From the NCBI GenBank assembly GCA_963787625.1, contig CAWBDH010000001.1:524175-588174 (forward strand): a stretch of DNA of 64,000 nucleotides. The letters run 5' to 3'. A program made the translations under genes and the position numbers. Shown in pieces: positions 54,104 to 60,331 of the stretch; position 1 is the first letter of the stretch; each line of letters begins with the position of its first letter. The notes under the pieces were generated by a model. The model was not told where the DNA came from, searched no databases, and saw only the letters and a list, made by a program, of their open reading frames with translations. The stretch comes from Vulcanimicrobiota bacterium (lineage in GTDB: Bacteria; Vulcanimicrobiota; Vulcanimicrobiia; Vulcanimicrobiales; Vulcanimicrobiaceae).

Positions 54104-55129
54104 TTGCAGCTGCTCGAGGTCGCCAACCTCCGGACGACGTTCCGTACCGAGGACGGCCTCGTCACCGCGGTCAACGGCCTGTCGTTTGCACTCAACGCCG
54201 GCGAAACGCTCGGCATCGTCGGCGAATCCGGTTCGGGAAAGTCCGTGACCGCGCTCTCGATAATGCGGCTCCTGGCGCGCAACGCTGCGGTCACCGCCGA
54301 CCGCATGGCGTTCAACGGCGAGAACCTCCCCGATAAGAGCGAAGCGGAGATGCGCAAGATCCGCGGCTACAAGATCGCCATGATCTTCCAGGACCCGATG
54401 ACCTCGCTCAACCCGGTCCTGACGATCGGCGAACAGATTTCCGAGGTGGTGCGCCTGCATCTCGACGCCGGAAAACGCGAAGCACGCGACCGCGCCGTCG
54501 AGATGCTGAACAAGGTCCGGATTCCGCGGCCGGAAACGCGGCTCGGGGATTATCCCCATCAGTTTTCCGGCGGCATGCGGCAGCGCGTCATGATCGCGAT
54601 GGCGCTTTCGTGTAACCCGCAGCTGCTGATCGCCGACGAACCAACGACGGCGCTGGACGTGACGATTCAGGCGCAGGTGCTCGAACTGATGAACGAGCTG
54701 CAGCGCGAAACCGGTGCGGCGATCGTCCTCATCACGCACGACCTCGGGGTCGTCGCGGAGTTCTGCAAGAACGTGTTGGTCATGTACGGCGGCAACCTGG
54801 TCGAATACGGCACCGCCGAACAGATATTCGCGCAGCCGCGCATGCCCTATACGCAGGGACTGCTCGCGTCGCTGCCGCGGCTCGACGACAGGGAACATCG
54901 CCGGCTCGAGCCGATCGTCGGCCAGCCGCCCAATCTCTTACGTCTGCCGCCGGGGTGCGCGTTCGCGCCTCGATGCGCGTACCGCATGCCGATTTGCGAC
55001 GAGCCGGTGCCGCTCTACGACTTCGGTGCGGGCCACGTCGCCCGGTGTTACCTGTACGACGAACGTGCACGCGACCAGCGTCCGCTATCCGTGCAGGGAC
55101 TGCCGACCGTTCCGGTGGGCGGCGGATGA
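54104..55129 (+). CDS. oligopeptide/dipeptide ABC transporter ATP-binding protein (OppD/DppD-type)
   Basis: Walker A GESGSGKS, signature FSGGMRQR, Walker [13 protein letters not shown], and the C-terminal oligopeptide-type extension with Cys residues. Confidence 0.85.
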
Positions 55130-56133
55130 ACGGCGCGCCGCTACTCGAAACGAGAGATCTCTACAAGTACTTTCCGATTCACGCGGGATTCATGTCGCGC
55201 CACGTCGCGGACGTGCGTGCCGTCGATGGCGTAAGCTTCACGATCCAGCCGGGGGAGACGCTCGGACTCGTGGGCGAATCGGGCTCGGGAAAGACGACGG
55301 TCGGGCGACTCCTATTGCGCCTGCTGCCGGCTACAAAGGGCGAGATACGCTTCGAAGATCGCGACGTGCTCGGCATGGGCCGCGGCGAGATCCGCCGGCT
55401 TCGCCGCTCGATGCAAATCATTTTTCAGGATCCGTTCGCGTCGCTCAACCCGCGCATGTCCGTGGGCGACATCATTGCCGAGCCGCTGACCATCCACCAT
55501 TTGGCTGCCGGCAAGGATCTCGACCGGCGGGTGCGCGAGCTATTGGAGCTGGTGGGGCTGCAGCCGTACCACGCCAACCGCTATCCGCACGAGTTCTCTG
55601 GGGGCCAGCGCCAGCGTGTGGGCGTAGCGCGGGCGCTGGCGGTCAATCCAAAGTTCATCGTCTGCGACGAGCCCGTATCGGCGCTGGACGTCTCGATTCA
55701 GGCGCAGGTCATCAACTTGCTCGAGGACTTGCAGCAGCAGTTTCGCCTCACGTATCTGTTCATCGCGCACGACCTTTCCGTGGTCCGGCACATCTCGACG
55801 CGCGTCGCCGTGATGTATGTGGGCAAGATCGTCGAGCTGGCCGACCGGGACGCACTGTACGAAAACCCGCTGCATCCGTACACACAGGCGCTGTTGTCGG
55901 CGATCCCAATCCCCGATCCGGTGTTGGAGAAGCGGCGCAAGCGCGTCGTGCTTACCGGCGACATCCCTTCGCCGGTGAATCCGCCGTCGGGATGCCGCTT
56001 CCACACTCGCTGCCCCGTCGCGTTCGACCGCTGCGTGGTCGAAGAGCCGCCCCTTAAGGAATACGAGCCGGGTCACTTCGCCGCTTGTCACTGGGTCGAG
56101 GAGCACGGCGGCCGCGGTCCCGATCTGGCATAA
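55126..56133 (+). CDS. oligopeptide/dipeptide ABC transporter ATP-binding protein (OppF/DppF-type)
   Basis: The ATG overlaps the upstream stop. [29 protein letters not shown] and the C-terminal [17 protein letters not shown] motif. Confidence 0.85.
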
Positions 56134-56140
56134 AAGAAAA

Positions 56141-56172
56141 ACGGGCGAACGCACAGCGTTCGCCCGTTTTTA
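56141..56172. terminator. bidirectional rho-independent terminator
   Basis: A perfect 12-bp stem ACGGGCGAACGC / GCGTTCGCCCGT with a 3-nt loop. It is flanked by an A-run upstream and a T-run downstream, between convergent oppF and the basic-repeat gene. Confidence 0.8.
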
Positions 56173-56186
56173 GCCGTTCTCGGGCG

Positions 56187-56681
56187 TTAACCGCCCTTCT
56201 TGCGCCCGCCCTTTTTGCGTCCACCGGTTTTTTTGCGGCCGGTGCTCTTCTTGCGTCCGCCGGTCTTCTTGCGACCGGTGCTCTTCTTGCGGCCGCCGGT
56301 GCTCTTCTTGCGTCCGCTGGCGCTCTTCTTACGTCCGCTGGAGCTCTTCTTGCGCCCCGTAGAACTCTTCTTGCGTCCGCTGGAGCTCTTCTTGCGTCCG
56401 CTGGAACTCTTCTTGCGTCCGCCCTTCTTCCGACCGTTCGTCGACTTCTTTCGGCTGGTGCTCGCGCTCTTTTTGCGGCCGCCCTTGCGGGTCGCTTTTT
56501 TGCGGCCGCCGGTGCTCTTGCGCGTCGAACTGGTCTTGCGGCCACCGGTGCTGGACTTCTTTCGGCCGTTACTCGACTTCTTGCGGCCGGACGTCGAAGC
56601 CGCTTTACGGCGCCGCCCATTGCGACGCGGGCCTTCATCCTCCATCCCGTTGCCGCCGTTCATTGTGGAATCCGAGTCCAT
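56187..56681 (-). CDS. extremely basic low-complexity protein with about 17 GRKK(S/T/G) repeats
   Basis: ATG at 56681 preceded by GAGGAGGA. It has its own TTGCAT-17-TATGAT promoter and a terminator downstream. Short acidic N-terminus MDSDSTMNGGNGMEDEG, then only G/R/K/S/T/A/N residues. Confidence 0.7.
   Translation of the reverse strand: MDSDSTMNGGNGMEDEGPRRNGRRRKAASTSGRKKSSNGRKKSSTGGRKTSSTRKSTGGRKKATRKGGRKKSASTSRKKSTNGRKKGGRKKSSSGRKKSSSGRKKSSTGRKKSSSGRKKSASGRKKSTGGRKKSTGRKKTGGRKKSTGRKKTGGRKKGGRKKGG
56200..56600. repeat. imperfect tandem 21-nt (7-codon) coding repeats
   Basis: Units such as GCTCTTCTTGCGTCCGCTGGA recur head to tail. All reading frames on both strands stay open here, which explains five overlapping track ORFs. 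Confidence 0.8.
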
Positions 56682-56749
56682 TCATTCCTCCTCGTCCCCA
56701 GGACGATTAGCGTTAGTTGGACAGCGCCGCAGTCGGCGCTTTTGAGCGA

Positions 56750-56778
56750 ATCATAGAGGATTTTGCCAAATCATGCAA
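56750..56778 (-). promoter_or_regulatory. candidate sigma-70 promoter of the basic-repeat gene (TTGCAT - 17 nt - TATGAT)
   Basis: On the minus strand, TTGCAT is at 56778-56773 and TATGAT at 56755-56750. A 7-bp hairpin AGCGCCG-ACTG-CGGCGCT lies in the leader. Confidence 0.5.
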
Positions 56779-56807
56779 ATTCACGTGCGCGCGCGACGTT
56801 GTCGAAT

Positions 56808-56836
56808 TTGCTGGTCCTTGACCCCGGCGGTATACT
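56808..56836 (+). promoter_or_regulatory. candidate sigma-70 promoter of topA (TTGCTG - 17 nt - TATACT), would give a near-leaderless mRNA
   Basis: TTGCTG at 56808-56813 and TATACT at 56831-56836. The GTG start at 56844 is 7 nt after the -10, and there is no Shine-Dalgarno sequence. Confidence 0.45.
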
Positions 56837-56843
56837 AGGGCCC

Positions 56844-58958
56844 GTGAAAAAGCCCCTCATCATCGTGGAGTCTCCCACGAAAGCGCGGACGATCAAGAAG
56901 TTCTTGCCTGCGCGCTTTGCGGTGAAGGCATCGGTGGGACACGTTCGCGACCTTCCCAAGAGCTCGCTGGGGGTCGACGTCGCGCACGACTTCGCGCCGA
57001 AGTATCTTACGATAAAAGGGAAAGGCGACGTCATCAAGGATCTGCGCGGCGCCGTTAAAACGGCGACGGACGTCTATCTGGCGACCGATCCCGATCGCGA
57101 AGGTGAGGCAATCGCCTGGCACTTGGCAGAGCTTCTCAAACTGTCCGATCCCAAGCGCATCGAGCTTCACGAAATTACGAAAGAAGCGGCGTTGGCCGCG
57201 CTCCAGGAACCGCACCGCATCGACATGGACCGGGTCAACGCTCAGCAGGCGCGCCGCATCCTCGACCGTCTCGTGGGCTACAAAATCTCGCCGCTGCTCT
57301 GGTCCAAGGTGCGCGGGGGCCTTTCGGCCGGACGCGTGCAGTCGGTGGCGGTAAAACTCATCGTCGACCGCGAGCGCGAGATTCAGGCGTTCGTTCCGCG
57401 GGAGTATTGGAGCGTCACGGCGGTGCTCGCTGCCGCCGGTGATCCGGAGTCGCCATTTGCGGCCGACCTCGTGTCGCACCGCGGGCAGAAGATCGAGATC
57501 GCCTCCGGGGCGGCGGCGGACGCGGTGCTCCGCGCGCTCGACGGAGCCGCGTATCGAGTCGCGTCGGTGAAGAAGCGGGAGCTGCGGCGGCACGCGCCCG
57601 CGCCGTTCACGACATCGACGCTGCAGCAGGAAGCGTCGCGCAAGCTGCGCATGCGCGTGCGACGCGCGATGCAGTTGGCCCAGGCGCTCTACGAAGGCAT
57701 CGACGTCGGCGGCAGCGAGGGCACCGTCGGGCTCATCACCTACATGCGCACCGACTCGACGCGCATCAGCGATCAGGCGCGTGACGCCGCTCGCGAGTAT
57801 ATCGTCGGCACGTATGGGGAGGACTACCACGCCGGCACGCGTCATCGCGTGCGTCAGGGCGCTCAGGATGCGCACGAGGCGATCCGGCCGACGTCGGTGC
57901 TGCGGACACCCGAAAGCCTCGCGGGTCTGCTCAAGCGCGACGAGTTGCGGCTTTACACGATCGTGTGGGAGCGCTTCGTCGCATCGCAAATGGCCTCGGC
58001 GGTGCTCGACCAGACCGTCATCGACACCGAAGCCAACGGCTACGTCTTTCGAGCCACGGGCACGATTGTGCGGTTCCCCGGGTTCACGCGCGTCTATAAG
58101 GAAGAAAAAGAGGACGACGCCACCGTCAAGGGACGGCCACGGCTGCCCGCCATCGAGGAACGTGAGGCGCTGGAGTGCCGCAAGCTCGAACCGAAGCAGC
58201 ACTTCACGGAGCCGCCGCCGCGCTATACCGAAGCGGCGCTCGTGAAGGCCCTCGAGGAGAACGGCATCGGGCGTCCCTCGACCTATTCGGCGATCGTGGA
58301 AACGATTCAGGCCCGCGGGTACGCGACGCAGCAAGAGCGCCGGTTCGTGCCGACGGAGATCGGCAGCGCGGTCAACGATCTGCTCGTCGAGCACTTTCCG
58401 AACATCGTCAACCTTGACTTTACCGCGCAAATGGAGGGCGACCTCGACCGGATCGCCGACGGCCACGAAGACTGGATCGCGCTGCTGCAGCGCTTCTACG
58501 GTCCGTTCGAAAGCGAGCTCGACGCCGCCGAGAAGAGGCTGCCCCGCCTCGAGATTCGCGACGAGCCGACCGACGAGATTTGCCCGAACTGCGGGCGTCC
58601 GATGGTGATCAAGACGGGCCGTTTTGGTCGGTTCATCTCGTGTAGCGGATATCCCGAGTGTAAGACGACCAAACCGATCGTCAAGCAGACGGGCGCGGAC
58701 TGTCCGAAGTGTTCCGGTGCGGTCGTCGAGCGCCGTTCGAAAAAGGGACGCGTCTTTTATGGGTGCGCGAACTATCCAAACTGCGACTTCATTTCGTGGG
58801 ATGCCGTCGCGCGCGAGCGCTGCCCGGTCTGCGGCTCGTACGTGGTCGCCAAGACGCGCCGCGGCGGCGCGGTGCAGCTGCTGTGCGCCGCGGACCGCAC
58901 GCATCACGTCCCCGCGCCCGCGCTCCCAGCCGAGGAACCCGCGCTGGCATCGACCTGA
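56844..58958 (+). CDS. topA: DNA topoisomerase I
   Basis: GTG at 56844 gives VKKPLIIVESPTKARTIKKFL (Toprim). Also ATDPDREGEAIAW, the active-site region LITYMRTDS, and three C-terminal zinc ribbons (CPNCGRPM..., CPKCSGAV..., CPVCGSYV...). Confidence 0.95.
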   Translation: MKKPLIIVESPTKARTIKKFLPARFAVKASVGHVRDLPKSSLGVDVAHDFAPKYLTIKGKGDVIKDLRGAVKTATDVYLATDPDREGEAIAWHLAELLKLSDPKRIELHEITKEAALAALQEPHRIDMDRVNAQQARRILDRLVGYKISPLLWSKVRGGLSAGRVQSVAVKLIVDREREIQAFVPREYWSVTAVLAAAGDPESPFAADLVSHRGQKIEIASGAAADAVLRALDGAAYRVASVKKRELRRHAPAPFTTSTLQQEASRKLRMRVRRAMQLAQALYEGIDVGGSEGTVGLITYMRTDSTRISDQARDAAREYIVGTYGEDYHAGTRHRVRQGAQDAHEAIRPTSVLRTPESLAGLLKRDELRLYTIVWERFVASQMASAVLDQTVIDTEANGYVFRATGTIVRFPGFTRVYKEEKEDDATVKGRPRLPAIEEREALECRKLEPKQHFTEPPPRYTEAALVKALEENGIGRPSTYSAIVETIQARGYATQQERRFVPTEIGSAVNDLLVEHFPNIVNLDFTAQMEGDLDRIADGHEDWIALLQRFYGPFESELDAAEKRLPRLEIRDEPTDEICPNCGRPMVIKTGRFGRFISCSGYPECKTTKPIVKQTGADCPKCSGAVVERRSKKGRVFYGCANYPNCDFISWDAVARERCPVCGSYVVAKTRRGGAVQLLCAADRTHHVPAPALPAEEPALAST

Positions 58959-58960
58959 TC

Positions 58961-60331
58961 GTGGTGTCGCTCCAACGCTTGACCGTCATCGGAGCCGGGC
59001 TCGCCGGCTGCGAAGCGGCCTGGCAGGCGGCGCACCGCGGAGTCGGCGTCGATCTCTACGAGATGCGGCCGCACAAGAGCGGCCCCGCGCATCGCACCGG
59101 CGCACTCGCGGAGCTCGTCTGCAGTAATTCGCTGCGCGGCGTGTCGCTGGAAAACGCCGTCGGGCTACTCAAAGAGGAGCTCGCGCGCCTCGGATCGTTG
59201 ATCGTTACAACTGCGCGCGACACGGCGGTACCGGCCGGCGGGGCATTGGCCGTGGATCGCGAGCGTTTCGCAGCCATGGTCGAGTCGCGCATCGTAAGCG
59301 AACCGCTGATCACGTTGCGTCGGCAGGAGGTCTCGAACGTGCCGCTCGACCGTCCGGCGATCGTCGCGTGCGGTCCGCTGCCAAACGAGGAGTTCGCAAG
59401 CAGCCTCGATGCGGTGCTCGCGGCCGCCGGGACCGGCGATGGACGCGTTCGACTCCACTACTATGACGCCGCGTCGCCGATCGTCGCCGCCGATTCGCTC
59501 GACGAATCGCCGATGTACCGGCGTTCGCGCTACGACAAAGGCGATGGGGACGACTATCTCAACATCCCGCTCGACCGCGCGGCGTACGCCGAGCTCGTGA
59601 ACGACCTGCGCACACTCGAGCGGCATCCCGCGAAGGAGTTCGAGGCGACGCGCTATTTCGAGGGCTGCTTGCCGATCGAGGAAATGGCCGACCGAGGCGA
59701 CGAGGTGCTACGCTTCGGCCCGCTCAAGCCGGTCGGGCTTCGCGATCCGCGCACGGGGACGATGCCGCACGCCGTCGTGCAGCTGCGCAAAGAGAACCTG
59801 GCCGGAACCGCCTACAACCTGGTCGGGTTTCAGACGCGCCTGTCTTGGCCGGCGCAGCGCGAGGCGTTCGGCAAGCTTCCCGGACTGCATCACGCCGAGT
59901 GGCTGCGCCTCGGCGTGATGCACCGAAACACGTTCGTGGACTCACCGCGGCTCCTCGATTCGCGGCTGAAGCTGCGCGGCACCGAAGCGCTGTATTTCGC
60001 CGGCCAGATCACCGGCGCCGAAGGATACGTTGAAGCGGCCGCATGCGGCGCAATGGCCGGCATCCACGCGGCGCGCGCGGTGCAGTCGCTCGAGCCGATC
60101 GACGTTCCGCGTGAAAGCGCGTTCGGCGCAGTTGTCGCCCATTTGCAAAATCGGCACACGGCCGACTTTCAGCCCGCGAACGTCACGTGGGGCGCCTTCC
60201 CGCTCTCTGCCGAAGCACGAGCCGGCGTGCGCGCCGGGAAACGCGAACGGCGCCGGGAGATCGCGGAGCGCGCGCTGGCGGCGATCGAAGGCTTCGCAGC
60301 TGAAACTCTCGCAGCGCCGGTCGGGTACTGA
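58961..60331 (+). CDS. trmFO: methylenetetrahydrofolate--tRNA-(uracil54-C5)-methyltransferase
   Basis: [18 protein letters not shown]...[10 protein letters not shown]...[19 protein letters not shown]. Confidence 0.9.

Follow-up and report, generated by a model that had tools for sequence, protein, structure and literature searches.

The C-terminal domain of eukaryotic histone H1 and the protamines are disordered, hyper-basic polypeptides whose function is driven by their composition. Nucleoid proteins with H1-like, lysine-rich low-complexity regions are also known from bacteria, and include HupB/MDP1, HupS and DdbA (PMC5676037, PMC3643593). Chlamydial Hc2 varies in length between strains via the number of its lysine-rich repeats (PMC2848022), and AlgP, whose KPAA tail has been described as H1-like and DNA-binding, organizes polyphosphate granules (PMC9239181). 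Two further systems link such proteins or repeats to DNA topoisomerase I: mycobacterial HU directly stimulates the enzyme (PMC4176182), and the lysine repeats of Streptomyces TopA stabilize the enzyme-DNA complex and give it processivity (PMC5714199). Here we describe a gene that encodes a hyper-basic repeat protein and stands head-to-head with topA in a 64-kb stretch of contig CAWBDH010000001.1 from a Vulcanimicrobiota bacterium, the whole of which is referred to below as the window. Vulcanimicrobiota, as the phylum is named in the NCBI taxonomy, is also called Eremiobacterota; its members are plentiful in soil and in Antarctic desert, and hardly any have been cultured. To our knowledge nothing is known of chromosome organization in this phylum, and our search of the literature found no paper connecting Eremiobacterota with histone-like proteins.

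The basic gene is a genuine, conserved, stand-alone gene, read in the frame rich in lysine and arginine (the K/R frame). We hold with moderate confidence that its product is an intrinsically disordered, H1- or protamine-like nucleoid polycation of the Vulcanimicrobiota (Eremiobacterota) lineage. The gene, the parts of its product and the adjoining topA are as follows.

56187..56681, minus strand: coding sequence of the hyper-basic repeat protein, 164 aa, from the list of open reading frames (ORFs), with an ATG start and the stop codon TAA at 56187-56189.
56631..56681, minus strand: acidic N-terminal head MDSDSTMNGGNGMEDEG, residues 1-17, conserved in the family.
56190..56630, minus strand: polycationic body, residues 18-164, read from the translation as PRRNGRRRK followed by 17 GRKK motifs with S/T/G spacers.
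56238..56423, no strand assigned: core of a degenerate tandem repeat with a 21-nt period, each unit encoding a GRKKSSS heptad (Tandem Repeats Finder, TRF: 9.1 copies, 80% matches, score 207).
56844..58958, plus strand: topA, encoding a DNA topoisomerase I whose C-terminal domain is of the Zn-ribbon kind and which lacks a Lys-rich tail, from the ORF translation; relatives show 72-75% overall identity.

As computed from its translation, the 164-codon ORF specifies a protein of 17.3 kDa with a net charge of +61 (composition K40 G33 S31 R26 T15 N5 A5 M3 D3 E2 P1). All aspartate, glutamate and methionine residues are confined to residues 1-17, and the remaining 147 residues (18-164) are built from G, A, K, T, R, P, N and S only. 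An earlier note, drawn up by a reader who had only the letters of this DNA and its ORFs, had recognized the 164-codon ORF, its acidic 17-residue head and a GRKK body encoded by degenerate 21-nt tandem repeats, all of which are borne out, the repeats by TRF; the approximately 17 GRKK motifs that it counted by eye number exactly 17 as assembled, alongside 18 RKK motifs. The RKK-to-RKK spacing is 7 residues in the core, then 6 and then 5 toward the C-terminus, and TRF also gives related periods of 15, 18 and 42 nt in the array. A very high, evenly spread positive charge combined with the lack of a folded domain is a feature of the H1-like class that the window protein displays. AlphaFold2, which on a single sequence affords weak evidence, predicted no secondary structure (pLDDT 54, pTM 0.12), an outcome consistent with intrinsic disorder of the basic protein.

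The window has a G+C content of 64.3%, and the G+C content at third codon positions (GC3) is 0.78 for the K/R frame, 0.81 for topA, 0.77 for the neighboring oppF and 0.43 for an overlapping A/R/P-rich frame. The frame, the ATG, the Shine-Dalgarno (SD) sequence and the head peptide are kept across about 65 related loci, and this retention, together with a GC3 that fits the genome, identifies the K/R frame as the real coding frame. Within the head, codons vary synonymously between loci (TCG/TCC/TCA for serine, GAC/GAT for aspartate), which points to purifying selection on the peptide. The earlier note had named the A/R/P-rich frame (56054..56638) as one that relatives might prove to conserve instead; they keep the K/R frame with its ATG, SD and head, and the A/R/P-rich frame, with its low GC3, has no conserved start and overlaps both the terminator and the 3' end of oppF, so that we rejected it as the true gene. 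The basic gene looks expressed.

A scan of species-representative genomes with full-length TopA was swamped by a universal motif and provided two close relatives, L002 (a Vulcanimicrobiota metagenome-assembled genome, MAG) and L001, in both of which oppF and topA flank a K/R-rich repeat ORF on the opposite strand. A metagenome scan anchored on the lineage-specific C-terminal tail of OppF, and not on the repeat, recovered 80 loci. When these are combined with L001, L002 and the window, the basic ORF is divergent from topA in 57/57 loci that reach the topA start; approximately nine further loci carry the basic gene on a contig that stops before topA, and the others of the 80 either end directly after oppF or represent a different opp locus without topA nearby. 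In L145, where topA is inverted with respect to oppF, the basic gene went along with topA and is still divergent from it, which indicates that its linkage is to topA. As a negative control we reused the remaining 78 loci of the full-length TopA scan: a stand-alone basic ORF upstream of topA was found in 0/73 topA loci from other phyla. The sole basic-ORF match in these control loci is TopA's own short Lys/Ala-rich N-terminal extension MTTKTAKKPARKTAAKKESKKAQK in a Schwartzia MAG (L033:1718-4051). The proximity to topA on which the earlier note had remarked is hence general among the related loci that extend to topA; its description of the two genes as divergent stands and its wording "back to back" does not, the arrangement being head-to-head. 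Several loci (L122, L130, L137, L148, L151, L153, L155 and L156) encode an OppF with the matching C-terminal tail followed by unrelated genes, with no topA in the DNA examined; they are a second opp locus, or else relatives in which the gene order differs. One protein match to the window protein is named Candidatus Baltobacteraceae.

Comparison of 60 distinct orthologues for composition and head conservation reveals a family with a constant architecture. The proteins are 91-164 aa long with a K+R fraction of 0.36-0.52; 99.6% of their D/E residues lie within the first 20 positions, and F, W, Y, C and H are wholly absent. The conserved elements are the head, with the consensus MDSDSxxNGGxxxEE (D2, D4 and G9 at least 90% conserved), a PRRKxRRRK motif and a C-terminal GGRKKK. 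The window carries every defining trait of this topA-linked family, namely the acidic head, the PRRKxRRRK-type motif, the repeat body, the divergence from topA, the promoter and the hairpin-SD leader. The spacer residues, on the other hand, differ completely among orthologues (A/V, A/P, G or S/T), giving repeat flavors such as ARKVRKAGRK, VRRKVARKAV, GGRKKAAKKA with KKPAA stretches, GRKKAGG and the window-type GRKKS(S/T)GG. The TopA proteins of L110 and L098 are among the closest to that of the window, yet the basic proteins of these loci have A/V-type repeats, implying that repeat flavor changes quickly. Indels were analyzed only in pairs of at least 95% identity and in L105 versus L154/L157/L158 (92-93% identity, few gaps); more distant DNA alignments contained many non-triplet gaps, which are low-complexity alignment artefacts, and were set aside. 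Pairs of coding sequences that are 95-100% identical differ by indels of 3, 12 and 54 nt, and the L105 comparisons by indels of 3, 12, 30 and 33 nt. As every indel is a multiple of 3, repeat number is polymorphic in frame only, and the variation in repeat number about which the earlier note had asked does occur between near-identical strains. Its suggestion that Ser/Thr richness would allow regulation by phosphorylation fares differently: S and T together account for between 0 and 0.32 of the body among orthologues, with the window at 0.30 being near the maximum, so that this richness is not a family trait, phospho-regulation cannot be central to the conserved function, and we ruled it out as a general property of the family. 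Taken at the level of sequence comparison, these patterns indicate that selection acts on charge density, the acidic head and the position by topA, and not on a particular repeat sequence.

A word-indexed search with the window protein retrieved only proteins in which the repeat forms a linker beside a DUF6496 (PF20106) domain, the only significant database matches (E = 2e-13 to 5e-4, such values being unreliable for low-complexity matches). An exhaustive phmmer search of 1.84 billion representatives gave 25 weak matches, 24 of which are unrelated low-complexity sequences, the exception being P0034, a mis-called orthologue. Searches with the L002 protein and with a profile of 61 orthologues returned a handful of mis-started or frameshifted versions of the family, all without a name. 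No called gene on record matches the window protein exactly. The public calls P0034, P0044, P0045, P0046 and P0048 are truncated, mis-started or frameshifted and bear at most the name "hypothetical protein"; their faults are a start too far upstream (through the promoter into antisense topA), read-through into antisense oppF, and a frameshift in a long-read contig. The window protein has no match in Pfam or NCBIfam, and its GRKKS(S/T) unit fits no family there, in keeping with the earlier note, whose author did not recognize this repeat from a described family.

We also compared the family with the profiles of H1-like proteins, namely PF07382 HC2 of Pfam (gathering threshold 40 bits) and the NCBIfam models NF038052 for Hc2 and NF038053 for the Burkholderia-type H1-like proteins (cut-offs 135 and 80 bits, respectively). 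The window protein has no match to HC2 even at E <= 10, and none to NF038052 or NF038053. HC2 is matched at E <= 0.01 by 5/61 orthologues, the best scores, reached among the A/K/P-type proteins of L154, L157, L158, L105 and L001, being 37.6, 36.3, 30.5, 29.1 and 20.7 bits, all below 40; weak matches to NF038052 and NF038053 occur in 4/61 and 7/61 orthologues, L001 reaching 31 and 25.3 bits, below the cut-offs. Since these matches are compositional and under threshold, they do not place the family within HC2, NF038052 or NF038053. Repeats of the KPAA/AAKK/PAKK type are present in L105, L154, L157, L158 and L001 and absent from the window body, with its 3% Ala, one Pro and S/T/G spacers. That the A/K/P orthologues fall just under the HC2 threshold nevertheless ties the family to the H1-like class, and the sequences of the syntenic loci form a continuous series from classical H1-like A/K/P repeats to the S/T/G variant of the window.

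The basic repeat is not restricted to the topA-linked family. Proteins of a sister family typically combine an N-terminal domain of about 75 aa (MATAQRT..LRIDF..FLYDP), a (G/S)RKKS(T/S) linker and a C-terminal DUF6496 domain; they are encoded at L162:6001-6639, L163:3509-4201 and L165:4551-4973, the protein from L165 (P0018) lacking the N-terminal domain found in most members. In L162 and L163 the gene directly follows genes for a LigD Prim-Pol and an ATP-dependent DNA ligase of non-homologous end joining (NHEJ) and precedes a rhodanese gene, and in L165 a LigD Prim-Pol gene is 0.9 kb away; in two loci a Ppx-GppA gene lies approximately 1 kb from the DUF6496-family gene. PF20106 has no match in the window protein, and a tblastn search of the 64-kb window with DUF6496 proteins aligned to the repeat region only, with no N-terminal or DUF6496 segment. 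Some of these alignments overrun the stop codon, and we considered a remnant DUF6496 domain beyond it; this proved to be a chance basic stretch over the terminator. A further metagenome protein, P0047 (206 aa), joins an unrelated N-terminal region through a PAAxP-rich linker to a tail of the form ARKVARKVRRAGRK, which is the repeat flavor of many topA-linked orthologues. The GRKKS(T) linker of the DUF6496 proteins and the tail of P0047 suggest that basic repeats act as portable modules in this lineage, and the location of the GRKKS(T) module by NHEJ genes hints at a portable DNA-tethering repeat in the phylum.

The 162 bp that separate the ATG of the basic gene (56681) from the GTG of topA (56844) are strikingly conserved in related loci. 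The elements of this region, along with the terminator at the other end of the basic gene, are the following.

56686..56693, minus strand: Shine-Dalgarno sequence GAGGAGGA, whose GGAGG core ends 5 nt upstream of the ATG; GGAGGA hardly varies in an alignment of 44 leaders.
56682..56743, minus strand: predicted 5' untranslated region (UTR) of about 62 nt, with the transcription start inferred from the -10 box.
56740..56723, minus strand: leader hairpin HP1, the 5' one, with many compensatory stem variants.
56722..56718, minus strand: GUCCA, which pairs with UGGAC of AUGGAC, enclosing the SD and pairing the start codon; recovered by RNAalifold.
56706..56692, minus strand: leader hairpin HP2, UCGUCC..GGACGA, which abuts the SD; recovered by RNAalifold.
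56750..56778, minus strand: basic-gene promoter, TTGCAT (56778..56773), a 17-nt spacer and TATGAT (56755..56750), from a promoter scan and conservation.
56782..56795, no strand assigned: alternating purine-pyrimidine (CG/CA) tract CACGTGCGCGCGCG, between the divergent -35 boxes.
56808..56846, plus strand: topA promoter and start, TTGCTG (56808-13), a 17-nt spacer, TATACT (56831-36), 7 nt and the GTG (56844), with no SD; read from the sequence.
56137..56171, no strand assigned: bidirectional intrinsic terminator with a perfect 16-pair stem (9 G-C pairs), common to the basic gene and the convergent oppF-like ABC ATPase gene (54955..56133).

In the promoter scan the basic-gene site is named TTTGCA-18-TATGAT, and chance would yield 0.1 sites of this kind; the arrangement AATTTGCAT-17-TATGAT is conserved across related loci. 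The topA block CTTGACCCCGGCGGTATACTAGGGCCCGTG is nearly invariant in about 45 of them, and the position of the GTG only 7 nt past TATACT, with no SD, suggests a leaderless topA mRNA. The divergent loci L001, L106, L127, L144 and L161 have a longer topA leader, which apparently contains an SD. The -35 boxes of the two genes are 29 bp apart, and the alternating tract between them is fixed in position and variable in sequence among related loci: an alternating run of at least 12 nt (up to 35 nt) is present in 56% of 48 distinct intergenic regions versus 4% of 1642 length-matched background windows. Alternating purine-pyrimidine tracts are prone to form Z-DNA, and this one may be a supercoiling sensor of that kind or a factor-binding site. 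We also asked whether TTGCAT-17-TATGAT preceded by an alternating tract is a promoter type of general use and rejected this, the two being combined within the window at the basic-gene site only.

The predicted leader of the window has a minimum free energy of -30.7 kcal/mol (z = -4.09), and 0/200 shuffled sequences were as stable. Among 47 distinct leaders HP1 can form in 46, HP2 in 46 and the pairing of the AUG in 42; the GUCCA/UGGAC helix is invariant in sequence in the main group, and covariation therefore cannot test it. A search of the leader against Rfam found no family, with sub-threshold matches only on the terminator hairpin. On these structure predictions the leader might control translation, either through autoregulation or by sensing temperature. 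The strong ribosome-binding site, the TTGCAT-17-TATGAT promoter and the bidirectional terminator that the earlier note had listed are all present, the stem of the last amounting to 16 perfect pairs; with A and T runs at its flanks, it can act both ways. Beyond topA, the ORF at 58709-60331 on the plus strand is, to judge by eye from its translation, presumably TrmFO/Gid, and the topA-trmFO order would then be as in Bacillus.

If the basic protein is indeed a nucleoid polycation, its mode of action might be envisaged as follows. It would bind a polyanion, most likely DNA, given that the pairing with topA is invariant, that some orthologues are H1-like, that the sister repeat occurs in an NHEJ context and that bacterial H1-like proteins offer precedents. 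The body of approximately 145 residues, with an RKK cluster every 5-7 residues, would contact the DNA backbone without sequence specificity, and the bound polycation would neutralize charge, compact or bridge DNA, and constrain supercoils. The acidic head of 17 residues, the only sequence-specific part, might conceivably dock a partner such as TopA or inhibit the protein by folding back on the tail. According to the twin-domain model, transcription-induced supercoiling couples nearby divergent promoters; with promoters about 100 bp apart, supercoiling would be expected to couple synthesis of the basic protein to that of TopA, and the two would thus be co-regulated. The 5' UTR with its AUG pairing probably limits or regulates translation, and it is conceivable that the leader provides autogenous or temperature control.

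Several considerations weigh against this proposal. A polycation of this kind would bind RNA, ribosomes or polyphosphate equally well; the window protein fits no H1-like profile, and the profile matches of its low-complexity orthologues are largely compositional and below curated cut-offs. A structured leader that pairs the AUG is unusual for an abundant nucleoid protein. The relatives were all reached through one lineage-specific anchor and so represent one clade; the topA synteny may be partly inherited rather than selected, and the topA neighborhood is suggestive and does not amount to a functional test.

The same neighborhood leads to a more specific, though unlikely, alternative, in which the basic protein is a dedicated trans-acting partner of TopA, its polycationic tail tethering TopA to DNA, its head docking TopA and the divergent promoters keeping the two in step. 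The divergent pairing with topA in 57/57 loci, which survives inversion, the Zn-ribbon ending of the window TopA without a Lys-rich tail, and a head that is conserved while the body drifts freely would all accord with such a role, as would the precedents of the Streptomyces Lys repeats, which stabilize the TopA-DNA complex and confer processivity (PMC5714199), and of an M. tuberculosis nucleoid protein that stimulates topoisomerase I by direct contact (PMC4176182). Yet Zn-ribbon TopA in other phyla works without any such partner, as seen in the 73 control loci, a promoter close to consensus and a strong SD would point to a protein more abundant than a stoichiometric cofactor of an enzyme, and the neighborhood by itself cannot distinguish this role from general nucleoid binding. 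An extension of the idea, which we likewise regard as doubtful, is that the basic protein, topA and the 162-bp region constitute a dedicated module for supercoiling homeostasis, wherein the alternating tract and the divergent promoters would sense negative supercoiling and co-induce both genes, while the tail, docked to TopA via the head, would tether the enzyme to DNA; by analogy, the basic protein would then be a split, trans-acting equivalent of the Lys-repeat domain of actinobacterial TopA.

Alternatively, the ligand might be RNA, the protein being an RNA chaperone or a lineage-specific ribosome-bound protein with an incidental topA neighborhood, a view that we think quite improbable. The composition suits RNA as well as DNA, and the AUG-occluding structured leader recalls the autogenous control of ribosomal-protein operons; one orthologue also weakly matches ribosomal protein S20 (E = 7e-4 in Pfam, 3e-5 in NCBIfam), but this match is single and compositional. 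Moreover, the monocistronic basic gene has no ribosomal or translation genes near it, the strict linkage to topA through an inversion is left unexplained, and a fast turnover of repeat type and number would not be expected at a fixed rRNA site. We give a very low probability to a scaffold for polyphosphate granules or condensates, which, like AlgP, would bridge polyphosphate and DNA or undergo phase separation in starvation or desiccation. The H1-like repeat protein AlgP does localize to and space polyphosphate granules (PMC9239181), and the extreme charge and predicted disorder of the basic protein fit complex coacervation, but the topA locus itself has no polyphosphate gene, and AlgP's structured N-terminal domain is absent from the basic protein; the GRKKST/DUF6496 genes approximately 1 kb from Ppx-GppA in two loci belong to a different protein family. 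Such a scaffold is in any case compatible with nucleoid binding and not exclusive of it. Finally, we consider it exceedingly unlikely that the ORF is a non-functional by-product of a stop-free repeat array or an assembly artefact: every frame of the array is open, the public calls for the family are missing or mis-started, and the repeat count in the window is that of the assembly, but relatives share the ATG, SD, promoter and head peptide, with synonymous codon differences in the head, GC3 matches the K/R frame alone, the indels of close relatives are all in frame, the gene is found in contigs of 0.3 to 2.8 Mb, and the frame is retained although the repeat sequence turns over completely.

The work thus defines a lineage-wide, essentially unannotated protein family whose members are strong candidates for the role of a major nucleoid polycation. 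It offers a natural experiment in composition-driven evolution, with charge density, head and genomic position fixed as the repeat sequence turns over, and the invariant pairing with topA via a conserved bidirectional control region makes it possible to test whether a histone-like protein is linked to supercoiling control. Should the protein merely coat DNA non-specifically, the family would be a modest extension of the Hc2/AlgP class.

Among described systems, Hc2 (HctB) resembles the topA-linked family in consisting of stand-alone, wholly low-complexity Lys/Arg-rich repeat proteins (approximately 165-237 aa) and in the strain-to-strain, in-frame variation of repeat number. It differs in its repeat unit, A/K-rich pentamers as against the GRKKS(S/T)(S/G) of the window protein, in its phylum, and in its developmental-cycle context, which the topA-linked family does not share; this family in turn has a conserved acidic head and a constant linkage to topA. 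AlgP (AlgR3) of Pseudomonas and the H1-like proteins of Burkholderia/Bordetella (NF038053) have tandem basic repeats with a composition like that of the H1 C-terminal domain, and the orthologues of L105, L154, L157 and L158 carry comparable KKPAAKKAA / AGGRKKAAKK repeats. The N-terminal domain of AlgP is structured, whereas the window protein has only its acidic head of 17 residues; it also contains about 3% Ala and a single Pro, and no match to these families reaches curated cut-offs. In actinobacteria, as here, basic repeats and TopA are coupled genetically, but the repeats there lie within the enzyme, whereas here they are encoded by a separate divergent gene; the window TopA carries Cys4-type Zn-ribbon motifs and ...PAPALPAEEPALAST at its end and has no Lys tail. 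Mycobacterial HupB/MDP1, an HU with a PAKK-type tail, and HupS and DdbA of Streptomyces unite their tail with a folded DNA-binding or DksA-like domain, and the basic protein has no folded domain. The likeness to eukaryotic H1 and protamines, seen in the S/T-K/R motifs of the window variant, is compositional only, there being no globular winged-helix domain and no homology to H1. The DUF6496 proteins have the (G/S)RKKS(T/S) repeat in common with the window protein; in them it is an interdomain linker between domains of which the window protein has neither, and their context is LigD genes and not topA. The S/T/G variant of the repeat is found elsewhere only in this one lineage-specific sister family. 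The topA-linked family as a whole is set apart from the known H1-like repeat proteins, whose profiles it fails, by its conserved acidic head and its invariant divergent arrangement with topA.

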